Below, in pieces: positions 5,730-64,000 of a DNA stretch of 64,000 nt (within the stretch, counting starts at the first letter, position 1; each line of letters begins with the position of its first letter). A model generated the notes under the pieces. That model did not search any database. It was not told the DNA's origin and saw only the letters and a list, made by a program, of their open reading frames with translations. The DNA is taken from NCBI GenBank assembly GCA_964016885.1, contig OZ024744.1, positions 66,588,001-66,652,000 on the forward strand. The letters run 5' to 3'. The position numbers were made by a program, and so were the translations under genes. Source of the stretch: Eledone cirrhosa. Taxonomy: Eukaryota.

Positions 5730-5846
<117 letters not shown>

Positions 5847-6029
5847 CACACAAAAATACATACACATACACATAGGTATGTGAAGGGCAAAACAAAAAGA
5901 ATATATGGGGGGGGGGGCATAAGAGGGGATAAAATATAAGGGGAGGTAAGGGAGAAAATTTTTTTTTAAAAATACAAGAGTACAGAATAGAATCAGCAAA
6001 ATAAAAACCGTAGCAGAAGTAAAGAGCAG

Positions 6030-6970
6030 GACGGGTAAAATTTCCGAGATCCATGGACGAGTTCTCTCCAGCAGTCTCTGTCCCTCATTATCACTGCCAT
6101 GACCTGCGTCTCAACAGACCAGTGTCTGTCCTTAGGGCATCAACATATGTTAACTTCGGTCTTCCTCTTCCAGTGTGTCCATGCAGGGGCTCCCACAGGA
6201 GCACTGAGTGCAGTGTCAACTCTGGATGTCGGTGAGCATATCCAGCTAACCCCAGTCTCCTTTGTGTCACTTTTGAGCCGACTTTTGTTTTCATCCTCAG
6301 TGTATACTGATTAATGTTCAGAGCCATCCTCAGCTTCCTCGTGTAGCACCCATCCACCATCTGAGTGAGTTTATTGGTCAGTGTCCAAGTCTCAGTCCCG
6401 TACAGCAGCACAGACTCCACTACAGCAACGAAGAGGCGGATCCTCAGGTCTTTACGAAGGTCCGATTTCCACACCGATCTCAAGCTGTGGCATGCCACCC
6501 AGGCTTTGCTCTTCCTCTCGACCACATCATCTTCCGTATTCCCAATCTTTGCTCCCGAATACAGGAAGTCCTCAACCAATTCTATCGGCTTCCCGCCTAC
6601 ATTAGTAATCTTCTCTGGCTTCTTAATATTCTCTACCAGATACTTCGTCTTAATCTCATTCATTCTCAGCCCCACTCTCATCGACACAGTCTCCACCTCC
6701 TGCATCAAATCCTCTGCCTCCTTCACTGTGTTTGTCACCAAAACTATGTCGTCGGCAAATTCAGCATCCGATATCTTTATTGCCTTAACTCTCCTGCTCT
6801 GAGCCGGTGCTACAGTAAAGCCAGAGTCCTGGTGTTTCTCCAGTGCAAGGCGCATACAATAGTCCACTGCAATTATAAAAAGGTAGGGAGCCAATGTATC
6901 TCCCTGGAGCAATCCAACCAGTATCTCAAAGAACTCTGTCATCCCATCAGGTGTAATGACGGAGAGTAAT
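6030..6970 (-). mobile_element. RTE-clade LINE, 3' part (RT to 3' end), disrupted
   Basis: ORF 6091-6942 has LQGDTLAPYLF, FADD, SVLLYGTETWTLT and GRGRP motifs; 3' end matches 61835-61955. Confidence 0.9.
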
Positions 6971-10006: not shown

Positions 10007-10040
<34 letters not shown>

Positions 10041-13000
10041 GTGAAAAATGGAACGGGAACAAAACAGAGAGGCAGTACGAACAAAGGTTTATTAGTTTCA
10101 CGCTCTTGAGAGTGGGGGGGGGGGGGACGTTTCAGGCATAAGCCCTTCTTCAGGCGAAAAGTGTGTGGGAAGAGAGTTCCGAGGGTGTGTAGGGGAGTGG
10201 ATGAGAGACATTTAGAAAAAGGGTGGGGGGAAAGGGTGGAAGGGGTACAAATAAAAAAAAAATAATAAACATGAAAATAAACAAGTGGTGGAAGGGTGTG
10301 TGGCGTGTAGGAGTGGTGGCGGGTGGAGTGGGGAGAGGGAGGCGGGGTGTCCAAGCGGGGAGGGCTGAAGGTGGTGTATGTGTGTAGGTGTACGTGTATT
10401 TGTGTGTGTATGTGAATGTGAGAGTTGGGGGAAGAACGAGCTTCCATGTTCAGGAAAATGTGTGTGTGGGGGGTGGGGGTGTAGGTCGGTGTGTGTGCAC
10501 GTGTGGATGCGGAGGGGGCGGGAGGATTCCGGATGCTGAGTGTGTATATATGTGGGGGTACGCACGTGTGTGTGGTGTTTATACGTATTGTGGATGTAGG
10601 TGGCATGGTTCTAAAAAAAATTTTTGTTGCCGGATATTTTCAATGTTATGGAGTGGATAGTGGGAACGATGGCCAATGGTGTGTAATCCGTGGTTGTGTT
10701 GGTCGGAAGAGGGGAGATGTGGGGTGCGCGCGCAACAGGAAGTGGTCAGAGGGTCAAGGCAGGAGGGGGGTAGAGGACTGTGGAGAGGGCTGTGTGTCTG
10801 TGTGTGCGGAGAAGTGGTCAGAGGGTCAAGGCATAGCAGCAGTAGAGGAGAGTGGCAGGTGGAGAAAATCAGTGTCAGTGTGTGCTGAGGTGCGGTGGAC
10901 AGGGGAGAGGATGGGTAGGTGTGAAAGGTGGAGTGGGGAGGGGGTCGTGCGGAGGGATGGGGTGTGTATTAGTAGAGGTGTTAGTTGGATGTGTGTGTGT
11001 GAAGGGGTATGGGTGGATCGGGGAGAGGGAGAGAAAGGTGTGGGGGACGGTGGAGGGAGTGTAGTGTACTGGTGTGTGCGTGCGTATTTGGATGAGTGTG
11101 TGGTGAAGGGGGGTGTTAGTATACTGGTGGTGGGGAAATGGTTGAATGCGGGTGTGTTAGTGGGGGTCAGTGGTGGTAGGGTGTGTAGAGTGGGTGGTGT
11201 AAGTGGGTGTGGGTGGGTGTGTGCGTGGGATCAGGGGGATGTTAGTATTGTTAGTTGGGGGAGGGTAGTCGGGGTGGGGTGGGGGTGTTAGTATTGTTAG
11301 TTGAGGGGTGGGCGGTGAAAAGGAGGAGTGTGTTAGTGGTGTTCGTGGGGGATATGTGTGTATGTGGGGGGGATGTCGAAGGCTAAAGGAATAGGGGTGG
11401 GGAGTTCAGGCTGGGGAGGAGTGTGGGTCTGTAGGATGAAGATGGTTCGTTGTTCGACCCTGAGGCGGGTGTTCCGTGGCATTGGAATAGGCCACACACT
11501 GTGAGGTGGTGCGCGGAATGTTCAGGGGAGCCAAAGTGGCGGGTGATGGGGGAACTCCCGCCGAGACGAATATCCCGGTGGGTGTTCGGTGAAACGGTCC
11601 GCCAGGTGACGTCCAATCTGTCCGACGTAGGTTGCGCTACACTCCATGCAGCGAAGTCCATAGACTAGGTTGGAGGAGGTGCGGCGGAAGGCGTGCCGGA
11701 CAGAGAGAGAGTGGCCTTTGGGACCCTGGAAGGTGGTGGTGTTGGTGATGTGGGGGCAGGTGTTGCAACGAGGCCTGGGACAGGGAAGGGAACCGGGGGT
11801 GCGTGGGTTGGGGGGTAGGGAGCTGCGGACGAGGAGGGTGCGGAGAGTGCGTGCGCGTATGAAGGAGGGGAGTGGTGAGGATGGAAAGATGTGGGAGGTG
11901 GAGGGGTCGGACTGGAGGCGTCGGAAGAGGTGGAGGATGGTGCGGTGGAGGGGTGGTAGGTGATGGAGAAGGGGAGACGGTGGGTGGGTGTGTAGTGGCG
12001 TGGGTGAGGGTGGTGGAGCGGTGGACAGCACGGGCGCGAGTGAGGGCAGTGTGGACGAGGGAGGGGGTAACCTCTGCGGATGAAATGGCTGACTAGGGAA
12101 AGGGCCTGGGACTCAAAGTCAGCATCTCGGCTGCAGAGGCGGCGGATCCTGAGGAGTTGGGAGTAGGAAATAGAGTGTTTAGTGTGTGTAGGGTGGGAGG
12201 AGGTGAAGTCGAGGTAGGAGTGGGAGTCGGTGGGTTTGAAGAAGGCGGAGGTGACGAGGGAGTGGTGGGAGGGGTCGATGGCGACAGAGATGTCTAAGAA
12301 GTGGACGTGGGTGGTGGAGATAGAGGTGGTGAAGTCGAGGGAAGGGTGGAAGGAGCAGAAGAAGGAAAGAAAGGAGTCGAGCTGTTCTCGGGTGAGGGTC
12401 GTGGCTCCGATACAGTCGTCGATGTAACGACCGTACAGTTCGGGCGTGGGGCCGGTGTACTGGGGAAAGATTTGGACCTTAACATGGCCAACGAAAAGGT
12501 TGGCATAGTTTGGGCCCATTCTTGTACCCATGGCTATCCCCGTGACCTGTTGGTAAAACTCACCCGAGAAGGCGAAACAGTTGAGGGTGAGGACCAGCTC
12601 GGCGAGGCGAAGGAGGGTGGAGGTGGAGGGATGGGGGAGGGGCGAGGGGCGAGGTAGTGCTTTGGGGCACGTAGGCCGTCGGCGTAGGGGATGATAAAGC
12701 GACTTGATATCTAGGGTGAAGAGGAAGGGCTGTGGGCCGGGTGGGAAGGTGAAGAAGTCGAATAAGCGAAGGGCGTGGTTGGTGTCGGAGATGTGGGAGG
12801 AGAGGGTGGTGACGAGGGGGGCGAGGATGGAGTCAAGAAAGGCGGAGATGAGTTCGGTGAGGCAGTTGCAAGCGGAGACGATGGGGCGGCCGGGTTTGTC
12901 GGGTTTATGGAGTTTGGGGAGGAAGTAGATAGTGGGGTTGCGGGGGGGATATGAGGTAGGAAGCGGGGGGGAGTGGGGGGTGGAGACAAGGTGTTGGTAG

Positions 13001-13217
13001 AGAGGTGTGGGGTCGGAGGGTAGAGGGCGGTAGAAGAGGGGGTTACGGAGCTGCCTGAGGGCTTCAGCCGTGTAGAGGTCAGCGCGCCACACCACCACAT
13101 CGCCTCCCTTGTCCGCCGGTTTGGTGACGATGTCATCTCGGCTACGGAGGGAGCGGAGAGCGAGGAGTTCGCTCCGTGAGATGTTATGCCGTTTGGACCG
13201 GTGGCGGAAGTCGAAGC
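10041..13217 (-). mobile_element. Penelope-like element (Neptune-like), 5'-truncated, frameshifted RT plus GIY-YIG, long low-complexity 3' region
   Basis: ADKG, YFLPKLHK..GRPIVS, GIAMGTRMGPNYANLF, RYIDD, KPTDSHSYL..SSHP; linker CPRPRCNTC; NLVYGLRC..YVGQ..RFTEH. Confidence 0.92.
10126..10153 (-). ncRNA. Minimal PLE-type hammerhead core
   Basis: Minus strand CTGAAGA-agggc ttat gcct-GAAAC-GTC; palindromic mini stem III; stem I not evident (poly-C run). Confidence 0.65.
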
Positions 13218-13222
13218 TATAT

Positions 13223-13253
<31 letters not shown>

Positions 13254-40344: not shown

Positions 40345-41136
40345 CAATATATTAACAAATTGAAACTATATTTATAAAACCATATTTATTTCATTATACA
40401 TATTTCAAGGGCCACCAAAGCAAACTATGGTGCGCTTTCATCAGATAAAATATAATATAGGTTAGTTTTATAAATAAATATTGACATACCCATAAAAAAT
40501 GCAACCATTCTGGTTGGAATCTCCTTGAAATATATATGTATAATGAAATAAATATGATTTTATAAATATAGTTTCCATTTGTTAATATATTGTATATTTA
40601 CTCCAATAATTTGTTGAGTGCTTTATATCAGTTATAAAAATATTTTGCTTGTTGCATCCCAACAAATTAAATATAACCTCTCTCTCTATATATATGTATG
40701 AGTTGTGATTTATGACAGAAGCTAGAGACCTAGAGACCAACGTTTTGGTCGGGGCCTTTCGTCGGATGCAAAATCAATCTAACAACTTCTAACAGCAGAC
40801 AGTCAAATCGTTATGTACCACTTTCTTGGGCATATGTGTTTTTATACATACATAAAAATATATGCACACACACACGCATGCACGCACGACACACACATTT
40901 ATAAATAAATATTGACATACCCTTAAAAATGCAACCATTCTGGTTGGAATCTCCACTATCCAGGAGATTCCAACCAGAATGGTTGCATTTTTTAAGGGTA
41001 TGTCAATATTTATTTATAAAACTAACCTATATTATATTATTATCTGATGAAAGCGCACCATAGTTTGCTCTGGTGGCCCTTGAAATATGTATAATGAAAT
41101 AAATATGCTTTTATAAATATAGTTTCCATTTGTTAA

Positions 41137-41277: not shown

Positions 41278-41336
<59 letters not shown>

Positions 41337-41339
<3 letters not shown>

Positions 41340-42803
41340 TAAAATAACAGATTAAAGTTTAAGCAAAGAATCGCTGCTTTCACCCTTAAAGGGATCTTCT
41401 GAAACTAACAAAGTCAATCTGTAAACGCAGAACTGGATATTTCAAAAAACGTTGCAACCGGAGGAAGACAGGAAGACGATACTTTGGTTCGTGGTAACGT
41501 TCGCTGGCAAAGAACGGGAAAAACGAATAATACGTCATTAATAGGAGCGGTGAAAAACAATTACGCGCAAAGACAAAACCACGTTTATGGTATAAAAGAA
41601 GTCGTAGACTAATGTTCTCTTAGGTGGTGCATAGAGACGTTCTCTGGCAATGAACGAAAAAACGAAGATAATAAGTCATATGTGTAGCGTGGAGAACAAT
41701 AGCGCGCAAAGACAAAACCACGTAAATGGTATAGCAGAAATCGTAGACTAAAATTCTAGCTAGGAGACCAAATGAATCTCCGCTACAGAGTTAAGAACAA
41801 AGTAAATAAATACAATACAGAAGTAATAGGAACAAATAAATACATACACGCAAACAGATACGTACATACACAAGCATACTCAAAACCTTACCATGGGTAT
41901 ACAAAACCACGCACATATAAATATGTGTGTGTGTGTATGCTTCTGTACAAATAAATAAATAATTATATAAACGTATATAAGTAAATAAATACGTATATAA
42001 CAAGCGACACGCATACCTACATATAAATACACGAATGTTCGGAGACGTAAGTCAACTAAGACAAGAAGTACACATATACACACACCCACCATACGTACGA
42101 ACCTGCACACTCACGCGGACGCAAAACTCCCGTATACACATAGCCAAACCCTAAATACCAGAATATGTAAAAAGTATACGCTATAACAGTCAAATATACG
42201 TACGAGAAGGTATACATACCTTCACAAAACATACGGGTAATATATACTTACCTATGCAAATACGTAAAGGAATAAACAAAACATATACTTAGCTCCCACA
42301 TCAAGACGTAAAATATCCACGTATAGATCGTGCTATCCGTTAGGGTATAACGTGGGGCTGTAATACAGGAAAGTTTTGTGCAATTTATGTTTACAAGCCG
42401 AAATTGCCTCAGATTTTTTGTTTAAGATGTGGTCTGCGGCGTAGAGTATTTCCAGGGCCTCAGCGGCGCAGAGGTCACATGGTCTTTTATTTCCGTTATA
42501 CGATCTAGCCCTAGCTAGGATCTCCCAGTGTAACTTATATTGGGTGTGGTTGTCTTTTAGACTCCAGATATAAGCTGAAAGTGACGTCATATTCCTTCTT
42601 AGAGGGTAACGAAAAGAATGGGTATGCATGTAAAGACGCTGCTTGAAACTATTGGCGGTTAACCCTATGTAGGCCCTAGCGATTCTTTGCTTAAACTTTA
42701 ATCTGTTATTTTAATAAATATTTGCTCTACGGTTCTTATATATTTGATATATATTTTCCTTATCGAGCCCTCTTTGGATTTTAGTCTTCAATTTTATTAT
42801 TAT

Positions 42804-42868: not shown

Positions 42869-43822
<954 letters not shown>

Positions 43823-44686: not shown

Positions 44687-44988
44687 AATATTTTCGAAAC
44701 AGCGAGCGGGTTTGAAATTATTATAAATCTAAGCTATCGCCGTATTTTGACTAAAGAAATTATTTAGTCTGATAGTGGAAAAAGACGGGTGATGTGTTGG
44801 TGTAAATGGTAGCACAGTGGTCTGGATAACCAAAGATGTGGGGCGACTCCCATGTACGTCAATACTCATCTTTTTCCATTTTCCCCGAGGGTTCTTAACC
44901 CCACTATCAGGCTAAATAATTTCTTTAATTTCTTTAGTCAAAATACGGCAATAGCTTACATTTATAATAACATATATATATATACATA

Positions 44989-54585: not shown

Positions 54586-55230
54586 GTATGTATGTAAGTA
54601 TGTATGTCCTTATGTATGTGTATGTATGTATCCATGTATGTATATATGTATGTAATTATGTATGTATGTATGTGTGTGTGTTGGTTGGTAGGTAGGTAGG
54701 TAGGTAGGTACCTACCTACACATACATATATACACACACATAGATACGTACATACATATATATATGCATACATACATATATATCTTAACCCTCCCCCCTA
54801 TCTCCCAACTTCTGTCCGATTTCCATCTCTCTCTCTTACTCTCTTTCTATCAATTAATCTATCTATCTATCTAGCTGGCCCGTCAGCCCCACTATATCAT
54901 TACCTACCTTTCTGTTACGAAATGCTTTCGTCTATCCATCTTTTTAACATATATGTTTATACACACACACACACATGTATGTATATATGTAATATGTATA
55001 TATATATATATGTGTTTGTGTGTGTATGTATATATATATGTATATAAATATATGCATATATATATATGTGTATATGTATATGAATATGTATATGTGTATA
55101 TATATGTATATATATATACATATATATACACACATATATATATACATGTATATACATATATATATGTATATACACATATATATACATGTATATACATATA
55201 TATATATACATACATATATCTATCTATCTA

Positions 55231-55283
<53 letters not shown>

Positions 55284-55332
55284 TTACATATATATATATA
55301 TATATGTATATATATACATATATATGTATATT

Positions 55333-55380
<48 letters not shown>

Positions 55381-55386
55381 CATATT

Positions 55387-55433
<47 letters not shown>

Positions 55434-55532
55434 ATATATAAATATGCATATATATATATATATGTATATGTATATGAATATGTATATGTATATTTATGTA
55501 TATGTATATACATAAATATGTATATGTATATA

Positions 55533-55586
<54 letters not shown>

Positions 55587-55646
55587 ATAATGATAATAAT
55601 GGAGCTGCGGCGTTGCAAATGGGATACATATGAAAAAGTGAGTCCT

Positions 55647-55711
55647 TCATCAGTGACCCTCCAACCGTCGTCGGCATTTCATCGCTTTAAGGGCCATATG
55701 CCTCAGGTTGG
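55647..55711 (-). ncRNA. Rearranged hammerhead candidate (family B), copy 1
   Basis: Reverse complement of 56637-56701; a further copy lies at 56433-56497. Confidence 0.7.
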
Positions 55712-56636
55712 TGCGAACAACGGCTAAAAAAAGTCGTTGGGACACGTAAATAAAGGGGGACGCTAGAGTAACAACAAAAAGGTTTAAGCAACGGAAAGTG
55801 AGTAGAAATAGACAAGTCCCAGATCTCTATGAATATAAACTCTGTGAAATCGTGAACAAGAGACGAAAGACCATCAGACCTGGTTGAAATGTGAGCAAGG
55901 AAAGAATTTCGCCCAAGTTTGACGGGGGGGAAAAAAGAGAGAGAGAGAGAAAGAAGAAGAAGAAGAAGAAGAAGAAGAAGAAGAAGAAGAAGAAGAAGAA
56001 GAAGAAGAAGAAGAAGAAGAAGAAGAAGAAGAAAAAGAAGAAGAAGAAGAAGAAGAAGAAGAAGAAGAAGAAGAAGAAGAAGAAGAAGAAGAAGAAGATA
56101 AGGGGGTCTGGTCTACGAATTCGGTAAACGCAAGTTTTGTGAAGTCGCAGACGAAAGAGAGAGAGAAAAAAATTCCATACCAGCTCGGTCAAGACTGCGC
56201 GAGAAAAGAATTACACACAGGTCAAACTTGAAGGAGGAGGAGGAGAGGTAGTGACAGAGAATGAGTGAGTGAAAGTTGAGGAGAGAGTAACAGAGAGGGA
56301 GACTGCTAGAAGTGGTAAAGATACAAGGAACGAAACAGACGAAGGCAGCATGGAAAAGTTATATGTGTAAATATGATGATAATAATGGAGCTGCGGCGTT
56401 GCAAATGGGATACATATGAAAAGGTGAGTCCTTCATCAGTGACCCTCCAACCGTCGTCGGCATTTCATCGCTTTAAGGGCCATATGCCTCAGGTTGGTGC
56501 GAACAACGGCTAAAAAAAGTCGTTGGGACACGTAAATAAAGGGTACTCACTTTCCGTTGCTTAAACCTTTTTGTTGTTACTCTAGCGTCCCCCTTTATTT
56601 ACGTGTCCCAACGACTTTTTTTAGCCGTTGTTCGCA

Positions 56637-56701
56637 CCAACCTGAGGCATATGGCCCTTAAAGCGATGAAATGCCGAGGACGGTTGGAGGGTCACTGATG
56701 A
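56637..56701 (+). ncRNA. Rearranged (non-circularly permuted) hammerhead candidate, family B
   Basis: ggcat-A-tggccctt-aaagcgat-GAA-atgcc..gagggtca-CTGATGA: stems III and I pair in exact hammerhead register, but the strand order is crossed. Confidence 0.7.
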
Positions 56702-56712
56702 AGGACTCACTT

Positions 56713-56752
<40 letters not shown>

Positions 56753-57014
56753 TTATATGCATATATATGTGTATATATATATATATGTATATACACAGTT
56801 CGAGAGTAAACCAATCTTAAAGAGAGAGATGGAGATAGGAGAGGAGAAGAGAGGTTGGTGAAGGTGTTAGAAGCCAAAAGCGTAAAGGCATGTGCTCGAT
56901 GTGCAATATGCAGTGGAAGGCAGCTAGAGTGCTGGGTTCATGCAGAGTTAGGTACACAGAGCTAGAAATATTTATTAGTTAAGCAAAACAATTGTAAACG
57001 GACATTATCATTGT

Positions 57015-62305: not shown

Positions 62306-62949
62306 ATGAAAAATATGAAAACATGGCGTGCTGCGTGGTTGCAAATGGATTACATATGAATAAAACTAGTCCTTCATCAGTGATCTTCCAACCTTCATTG
62401 GTATTTCATCGCTTTAAAGACCATATACCTCTGGTTGGTGCGAGCAACGGCTAAAGAAAGTCGTTGGGACACGTAAATAGGGGGAACAAGCGACATAGTA
62501 ATCAAACAAAGATAGTAATGCAACGAAAAGTGAGGAAGAAGGAATCAAGTCCCTGAAATCGATGAACATGAGTTCTGTGAAATCGTGGACGAGAGAGAAT
62601 AAAGACCATCAAACCTGGTCGAAGTGTGAGGAAAGAATCTCGCACAGGTCAAACGGGAGGAAGTAGGAGAGGGAGTAGCAGAGAGTGAGTGAGTGAAAGT
62701 GTGAGGAAGAGGCTAACAGAGAGAGTGACTGGTAGAGGGGGTAAAAGGAAGTGAGAGATACACAGAGAAGGGGAAGCAGTCAGAAAGAAACAGACGGGTC
62801 ACAGCGGAGGAAAATATATATGAAAAATATGAAAACATGGCGTGCTGCGTGGTTGTAAATGGGTTACATATGAATAAAATTAGTCCTTCATCATCTCAAG
62901 AGCGTGAAACTAATAAACCTTTGTTCGTACTGCCTCTCTGTTTTGTTCC
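62306..62949 (-). mobile_element. Diverged family B copy (period 514 bp) ending in an inverted Neptune-PLE terminus
   Basis: 62306-62379 repeated at 62820-62893; 62894-62949 is the reverse complement of 10056-10111. Confidence 0.85.
62374..62438 (-). ncRNA. Rearranged hammerhead candidate, diverged copy with compensatory changes
   Basis: ggtat-A-tggtcttt-aaagcgat-GAA-atacc..gaagatca-CTGATGA. Confidence 0.7.
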
Positions 62950-63572: not shown

Positions 63573-64000
63573 ATTATTATTAAAGGACTTTAACATCTGA
63601 AACTACTTCGCTTTTTCTCATTCGATATATACTCCGTCACTCCTATGTGGAAAAATTACGTTGAGTGCTTGAATTGAATTGCATCAATATTTACCTTAAG
63701 TATATATAAATATACATATATATATATATATACATACACACACAATCACAAACACATGCTTACGCACGTGCACCAGTATAGCTCTTTTTACAAAACGTTT
63801 TTTTTTCCATTTTAGGTTGACGCGCTCAATAATCCACTTTTCTAAAAAATAAATCATACACAAAACGCCAGCAGCAATAGTTTTGCAAAAGATGTCAACA
63901 TGAATGACCTGTTATTTTTATCTAAAGAAATGTTTTCCAATTCCATCCCGCCCGTACCCTCAATCTATCATATTTCTCATTCTTTCTTCTGATGAAGTAC

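Follow-up and report, generated by a model that had tools for sequence, protein, structure and literature searches.

What kind of element is the ORF-less repeat at positions 55590-56720 of the 64,000-nt window of the Eledone cirrhosa genome analyzed here, and how could such a sequence have been copied into its target? The initial annotation read it as a 786-bp monomer followed by a 168-bp direct repeat and an inverted 177-bp end lacking about 38 nt, all within (TA)n, and comparison of the repeats reproduced this layout exactly (Table 1). The direct-repeat period is exactly 786 nt, with 55590-55757 and 56376-56543 aligning over 168 nt with 1 mismatch. The inverted arm (56544-56720) matches 55628-55804, also with 1 mismatch, plus a few AT bases that it has in common with the flank; it lacks the 38-nt end at 55590-55627, and (TA)n lies on both flanks of the insertion. 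The RNA sense of this element, which we call family B, is the minus strand of the window, on which copies have a constant 3' end and are truncated to varying extents at the other. A variant common to both tandem units is absent from the inverted arm.

The diverged relative previously placed at 62306-62893 does have the proposed 514-nt period, but it is not free-standing: the adjoining sequence, 62894-62949, is the 3' end of a Neptune-type Penelope element (PLE) to which it is fused. contain neither the GAA expansion nor the internally duplicated block.

Table 1. Features of the family B insertion and of a related copy in the window (strand relative to the window; cleavage sites are predictions)
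Feature	Positions	Strand	Predicted cut	Remarks
Left (TA)n-rich tract	54950..55589	.		approximate start
Full 786-nt unit, subfamily B1	55590..56375	-		tail end at (TA)n tract
Optional 38-nt 3' tail	55590..55627	-		between two putative reverse-transcription start sites (PMC11167929)
Permuted hammerhead motif 1	55642..55743	-	between 55697 and 55696	order: helix X strand, hairpin Y, helix Z strand, bridging helix, cleavage block, GAAA block, CUGAUGA block
Kink-turn-like loop	55668..55704	-		predicted; 3-nt bulge, G.A and A.G pairs; between stem III and bridging helix
GA/GAA microsatellite expansion	55937..56098	+		between two copies of internally duplicated block (about 115-140 nt); approximate limits
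5'-truncated second unit (168-nt direct repeat, pseudo-LTR)	56376..56543	-		complete ribozyme motif retained
Permuted hammerhead motif 2	56428..56529	-	between 56483 and 56482	
Inverted second arm	56544..56720	+		5'-to-5' junction with first arm; stops at tail-less site
Permuted hammerhead motif 3	56605..56706	+	after 56651	in inverted arm
Right (TA)n-rich tract	56721..56790	.		
Subfamily B2 copy	62306..62893	-		514-nt unit plus truncated second unit, tailed
B2 ribozyme motif	62369..62470	-	between 62424 and 62423	
Neptune-type PLE 3' end	62894..62949	+		5'-to-5' with B2 copy, no TA spacer (chimeric second arm)

An Rfam scan of the window gave no ribozyme family among the matches listed (150 of 160), and the hairpin miRNA matches from that scan were dismissed as chance. 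At 44791-44861 (+), a tRNA-like sequence that may be the head of a SINE scored above the Rfam gathering threshold. Other repeat families occur as back-to-back arms in (TA)n at 40345-41130, 41336-42760 and 42974-43790; one of these has a minimal type I hammerhead at 40444 (-), 41044 (+) and 61324 (-), and another includes a Hydra-like endonuclease remnant at 42354-42674.

A protein-free tandem repeat with two 3' stop sites

Across the 3.0-Gb genome, a pattern describing the ribozyme core had 9,983 exact matches compared with 29 for the reversed control, far above chance, and a second, overlapping core pattern had 8,243 matches compared with 0; such matches count ribozyme cores rather than insertions, and family B amounts to about 10,000 cores. 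The best 40 genome matches to the window's subfamily, B1, are 99-100% identical, indicating that this subfamily moved recently. Copies are scattered among many chromosomes, their 3' ends constant and their 5' ends variable, and the family is also present in contigs of public sequencing runs from three studies.

The family shows no sign of coding capacity. Fifty-four distinct monomers, measured core to core, are 445-806 nt long, 65-73% pyrimidine, and 0.39-0.45 in GC content. Read as circles, they contain ATG-started frames of 31-206 aa that are low-complexity and copy-specific, with no conserved ORF among them, in agreement with the earlier statement that no coding remnant is visible. In these respects the units resemble those of metazoan retrozymes: ORF-less, arranged in tandem, with one ribozyme each and a GC content below 50%. 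Tandem arrays reach 9 units (locus L091), and many tandem units differ from one another. In the L091 array, two rare variants are common to the units, which vary in microsatellite length (721-806 nt).

We merged BLAST matches within fetched loci into 251 distinct complete blocks, a non-random sample in which many loci were picked by queries. In ninety-eight blocks the sequence continues through a tail into a further unit. Comparison of the upstream 1.5 kb with six PLE protein pieces, none of them from a Naiad element, revealed no block that leads directly, in sense, into a PLE ORF. B is thus a self-contained unit in this sample rather than the UTR of a longer element. The proposal of a non-autonomous element therefore held for the sampled blocks, among which no ORF-bearing master was found, and the longer copies, which might have exposed B as the UTR of an autonomous element, lead into further units.

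Two fixed 3' stop sites lie about 40-50 nt apart, and 229 of the 251 blocks end at one of them, beside a microsatellite: 137 past the tail and 92 at the tail-less site, with 22 unclear. Among the sampled loci, 34 pairs of blocks are joined 5'-to-5'. One arm is tailed and the other untailed in 25 of the 27 classifiable pairs, two pairs have no tail and none has two (p ~3e-6, binomial, even odds). Together with partial tandems, 5' truncation and a (TA)n target, an inverted arm and a tail at one end characterize PLE insertions, and all of these occur in B; the Penelope integration architecture first suggested for a single insertion thus recurs in the sampled copies as tail asymmetry, 5' truncation, inverted arms and (TA)n flanks.

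The layout with partial tandems and an inverted arm was described for PLEs by Craig et al. (PMC8557442). Anole PLE protein in vitro cuts and extends both DNA strands and uses two start sites that define a tail (PMC11167929), and by analogy B insertions may be made in the same way. This anole Poseidon PLE (Frangieh et al. 2024, PMC11167929) resembles B in the two start sites that define an optional tail, and its cutting and extension of both strands in AT-rich DNA would apply to B as well. It is autonomous and has a type I ribozyme, whereas B would use an enzyme in trans, as genomic chimeras suggest (see below).

The back-to-back pairs also bear on whether B spread by DNA-level events, such as satellite expansion or foldback, or whether its layout is an assembly artefact. 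Long arrays do occur, such as that of nine units, inverted repeats in (TA)n are hard to assemble, and no contig from 6 public sequencing runs bridged the 56543/56544 junction, though the family is present in them. However, the dispersed copies on many chromosomes have constant 3' and variable 5' ends, the layout recurs in 34 pairs that have different breakpoints and a strict tail asymmetry, and the family is found in public runs of three studies. We regard such an explanation as highly improbable and favor insertion by reverse transcription.

How many RNA templates enter one insertion can be approached from the same pairs. Fifteen back-to-back pairs contain two full motifs; none of them combines different subfamilies, and several have rare variants in common, which counts against frequent use of two RNAs per insertion. 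A private-variant test of circular against multimeric templates had a mixed outcome.

A rearranged hammerhead fold near the 3' end

The initial annotation had supposed that tandem transcripts are cleaved by a rearranged ribozyme, and the motif near the 3' end of each unit does have the makings of one. On the sense strand its blocks follow the order cleavage block, GAAA, CUGAUGA (S-G-C), a non-circular permutation of the hammerhead, and stems I and III adjoin the core in just the way that a hammerhead requires. Cuts at the predicted sites of motifs 1 and 2 would free a 786-nt unit. In an alignment of 34 sequences from about six subfamilies, 94.5% of cells are paired and 16 of 35 pairs have changes on both sides, compared with 27-48% of cells paired in slid registers used as a control; these covariation counts overstate the number of independent events, because the subfamilies are related. 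Without subfamily B6, 95.0% of cells are paired and 10 of 35 pairs have both-side changes. Such changes affect 5 of 7 pairs in stem I, 4 of 6 in the bridging helix (6 bp), 4 of 8 in hairpin Y and 1 of 5 in stem III, while helices X and Z are near-invariant within B (only 0 of 4 and 1 of 4 pairs). Between subfamilies, identity is 65-96% in the motif and 48-85% in the rest of the unit.

The residues expected at a hammerhead active site are retained. In 248 motifs, collected with core-based patterns that inflate core conservation, CUGAnGA is kept in 239, GAAA in 243 and U16.1 in 245. The base before the predicted cut is A or C in all 248 and never G, and in 243 of them the cleavage triplet reads AUA (184 motifs) or AUC (59). 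The loop between stem III and the bridging helix is predicted to be kink-turn-like: 206 of the 248 motifs fit the kink-turn consensus, and a further 35 fit the variant with U at position 2n, the commonest natural kink-turn substitution (PMC5061560).

Stem II is where the motif departs from the hammerhead. A G-block/C-block helix is absent, as the segments preceding GAAA and following CUGAUGA do not pair with each other; each can pair with an upstream strand of its own, forming helices Z and X, respectively, with hairpin Y between them. The single stem-II pair adjoining the core is kept in only 76% of rows, and a one-base-pair canonical stem II was ruled out because subfamily B6 does not keep the pair. 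Pistol, twister and HDV-like folds were dropped, since their helix order does not fit. Energy folding recovered X and Y in 3 of 4 sense-strand folds, and z-scores for folding of the motif, computed without pseudoknots, were only -1.0 to -1.4.

A generic descriptor scan of 1.17 Mb of loci returned 239 matches, all in family B, and 0 in reversed sequence. Searches for subfamilies with other X and Z helices yielded mostly truncated or mutated copies, plus subfamily B6, and a pattern scan of metagenomes gave 13 matches, none with the fold. A short repeat found at L105 (5270-5363), L197, L198 and near position 63989 of the window has a canonical type I hammerhead; the stem II letters of the repeat at these loci, GGAC/GUCC, are those of B helix X, and it is a possible relative of the motif.

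Whether the fold cuts is a separate matter from whether it exists. It could be real and yet lack autonomous cutting, being kept as a structure to which the PLE enzyme binds or at which it starts, or cutting in a protein-dependent manner, with uncut multimeric transcripts serving as template. The motif lies 10-30 nt from the first fixed stop site, its stem II is split, many tandem units differ from one another, and the ribozyme of the anole PLE depends on protein, while insertion in vitro can do without it (PMC11167929). Folding of whole units points the same way: circular folds of 5 monomers were only 35-45% paired, with z ~0 in 4 of them and -4.9 in the fifth, which contains a long microsatellite. 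We consider a circular RNA intermediate possible on these models, although we lean slightly away from it. Furthermore, only 1 of 9 predicted frog retrozyme dimers cleaved according to a preprint, a result that by analogy would count against self-cleavage of the B motif, as predicted ribozymes often fail. However, the catalytic core bases are all kept, G never precedes the cut in 248 motifs, and a matching register appears in distant Naiads (see below). For these three reasons we prefer catalysis over binding, and a fold without autonomous cutting seems unlikely to us.

Relation to Naiad elements and other known systems

Craig et al. described no canonical hammerhead in Naiads and flagged core or half-core motifs without explaining them, eight half-core cases among them; cephalopod Naiads are described there as remnants (PMC8557442). 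We compared 25 published Naiad 3' ends by eye, using the last 330-420 nt of each (supplement of PMC8557442). In seven of them the complete set of helices (X, Y, Z, the bridging helix, stem III, stem I) recurs in the order seen in B but with different sequences. The seven are one ctenophore (stem I is short), three corals that are nearly identical, one acanthocephalan and two octopus elements, likewise nearly identical, and they amount to about four independent sequences. The Euprymna (squid) Naiad has part of the fold only, and the remaining 17 have no such motif by eye in the 330-420 nt compared. Octopus Naiads and subfamily B3 also have kink-turn letters and a 10-nt hairpin-loop stretch in common, again by eye. 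These ends provide the best support for helices X and Z, and they suggest that the B motif descends from, or has a common ancestor with, a Naiad PLE 3' end.

Such a relationship raises the alternative that an autonomous Naiad-like element survives in the genome, with B as its terminal repeat and the short B copies as its truncation products. The overall architecture, the hairpin-loop stretch and the kink-turn letters are indeed those of the published octopus Naiad ends, and our genome search for Naiads used a single short motif. This motif had 19 matches, of which 6 are Naiad-like, and all 6 are full of stops, in contrast to B1 copies that are 99-100% identical; among the 251 blocks, moreover, the 98 that extend further enter a next unit, and none enters directly in sense any of the six PLE pieces, all of them non-Naiad. 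We judge a surviving Naiad-like master to be very unlikely, and since the Naiad-like matches are decayed, with stops throughout, young B likely uses the enzyme of another PLE. A protein query first taken for a Naiad search was set aside as Hydra-type. Older decayed repeats with Naiad-like core spacing were seen at L383, L402 and related matches; L383 keeps stems I and III in S-G-C order, and more families may carry the fold.

B has the partial tandems, the inverted 5'-truncated arm, the one-end tail and the (TA)n targets of Naiad PLEs (PMC8557442) and, by eye, the ribozyme architecture of their ctenophore, coral, acanthocephalan and octopus 3' ends, but unlike them it is without an ORF. Type-SGC hammerheads, or HRIMA-1, come from metatranscriptomes rather than from genomes of known organisms (Eckert et al. 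2023, PMC10085705). Like the B motif, they have their blocks in S-G-C order; their stems I and III are pseudoknotted, 3-4 nt connect stem I with the stem-II side, and an additional helix links the distal sides of stems I and II. The B motif differs in three ways: its stem II is divided among helices X, Y and Z, contrary to the scheme of three blocks; stem III is connected to the bridging helix by a predicted kink-turn-like loop; and the motif resides at about 10,000 copies in an animal retroelement, where its cleavage is predicted.

Metazoan non-LTR retrozymes (PMC7229834; 10.64898/2026.07.22.740005), which have been proposed to be non-autonomous, PLE-dependent derivatives of PLEs, are likewise ORF-less tandem units with one hammerhead each and GC below 50%. 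Their hammerheads are of type I and their circles well paired and about 170-400 nt long, whereas B has pyrimidine-rich, weakly paired units of 445-806 nt, whose permuted motif would escape type I descriptors. Judged from its sequence, B resembles an animal non-LTR retrozyme but lacks the type I hammerhead, and its motif resembles type-SGC but lacks an undivided stem II.

Candidate enzymes and a proposed route of copying

The 5' neighbors of B blocks offer clues to the enzyme. In 53 blocks this neighbor is neither microsatellite nor B. Direct 5'-to-5' fusions to a Neptune-type PLE piece that ends at its own 3' end were found at L172, at L109 and at window position 62894, and a fourth fusion, at L105 (duplicated as L106), passes through a 94-nt piece of another hammerhead repeat. 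These chimeras point to the Neptune-type family as the most likely source of B's enzyme in this genome. A B block at L034 is fused to a Hydra-like endonuclease piece, so the enzyme partner may not be Neptune alone.

The Neptune-type family has open frames of 822-828 aa with an RT bearing DKG and YIDD, a CX4CX2C linker and GIY-YIG-type motifs, as well as a canonical type I hammerhead and at least 4,268 3' ends in the genome; Pfam returned only a weak RVT_1 match for its protein. Sequence comparison found no DNA similarity between B units and Neptune or Hydra units, whereas non-autonomous Chlamys elements have 3' sequence in common with their masters (PMC8557442). Likeness between B and Neptune tails is limited to a short U-rich CAU end motif and was not significant in 4 of 5 tests. 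The window also contains a diverged 5'-truncated Neptune-type copy at 10021-13223 (-) with a canonical type I hammerhead near 10153, and at L171 another tandem type I hammerhead repeat of about 490 nt (5743-6772, -) lies upstream of a Neptune-type copy. An abundant Hydra-type PLE with RWR and DKT motifs and open frames of about 810-870 aa (L344-L353) is a further candidate enzyme donor.

Taken together, family B is probably a repeat that encodes no protein, forms tandems and reaches (TA)n tracts through copying by a PLE reverse transcriptase, most likely Neptune-type; its 3' end has a permuted hammerhead fold predicted to cut tandem transcripts to unit length. In the route that we propose, a tandem B locus would be transcribed on its pyrimidine-rich strand, and the motif would cut the transcript after AUA or AUC to give unit-length RNA. 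A PLE enzyme would then cut both DNA strands within (TA)n and begin copying from a different one of the two stop sites on each strand, leaving two arms that meet 5'-to-5', only one of them with a tail. For the second arm, the template would usually be family B RNA and occasionally another RNA. By using the enzyme of another PLE, B may have outlived the Naiads.

More tentatively, and as something that could nearly as well hold as fail, an active four-piece hammerhead (S-G-C, with a three-helix junction for stem II and an optional kink-turn) may be the missing ribozyme of Naiads across animal phyla, and B a Naiad-derived retrozyme that outlives its master through Neptune-type enzymes copying unit-length RNA into both ends of one DNA break.

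Permuted hammerheads were previously drawn from environmental RNA and DNA, bar one doubtful bacterial case, and their three building blocks were assumed to be indivisible. We found no report of the B motif in animals in the open-access literature searched. If the reading proposed here is true, the range of folds known for the hammerhead would grow by a form with a split stem II and a kink-turn, of which an animal genome holds about 10,000 copies; the puzzling half-core motifs of Naiads would be accounted for, and a whole class of genomic ribozymes would have been missed by standard descriptors. The tail asymmetry and the chimeric arms, for their part, would be direct genomic footprints of the long-suspected use of Penelope enzymes by retrozymes.
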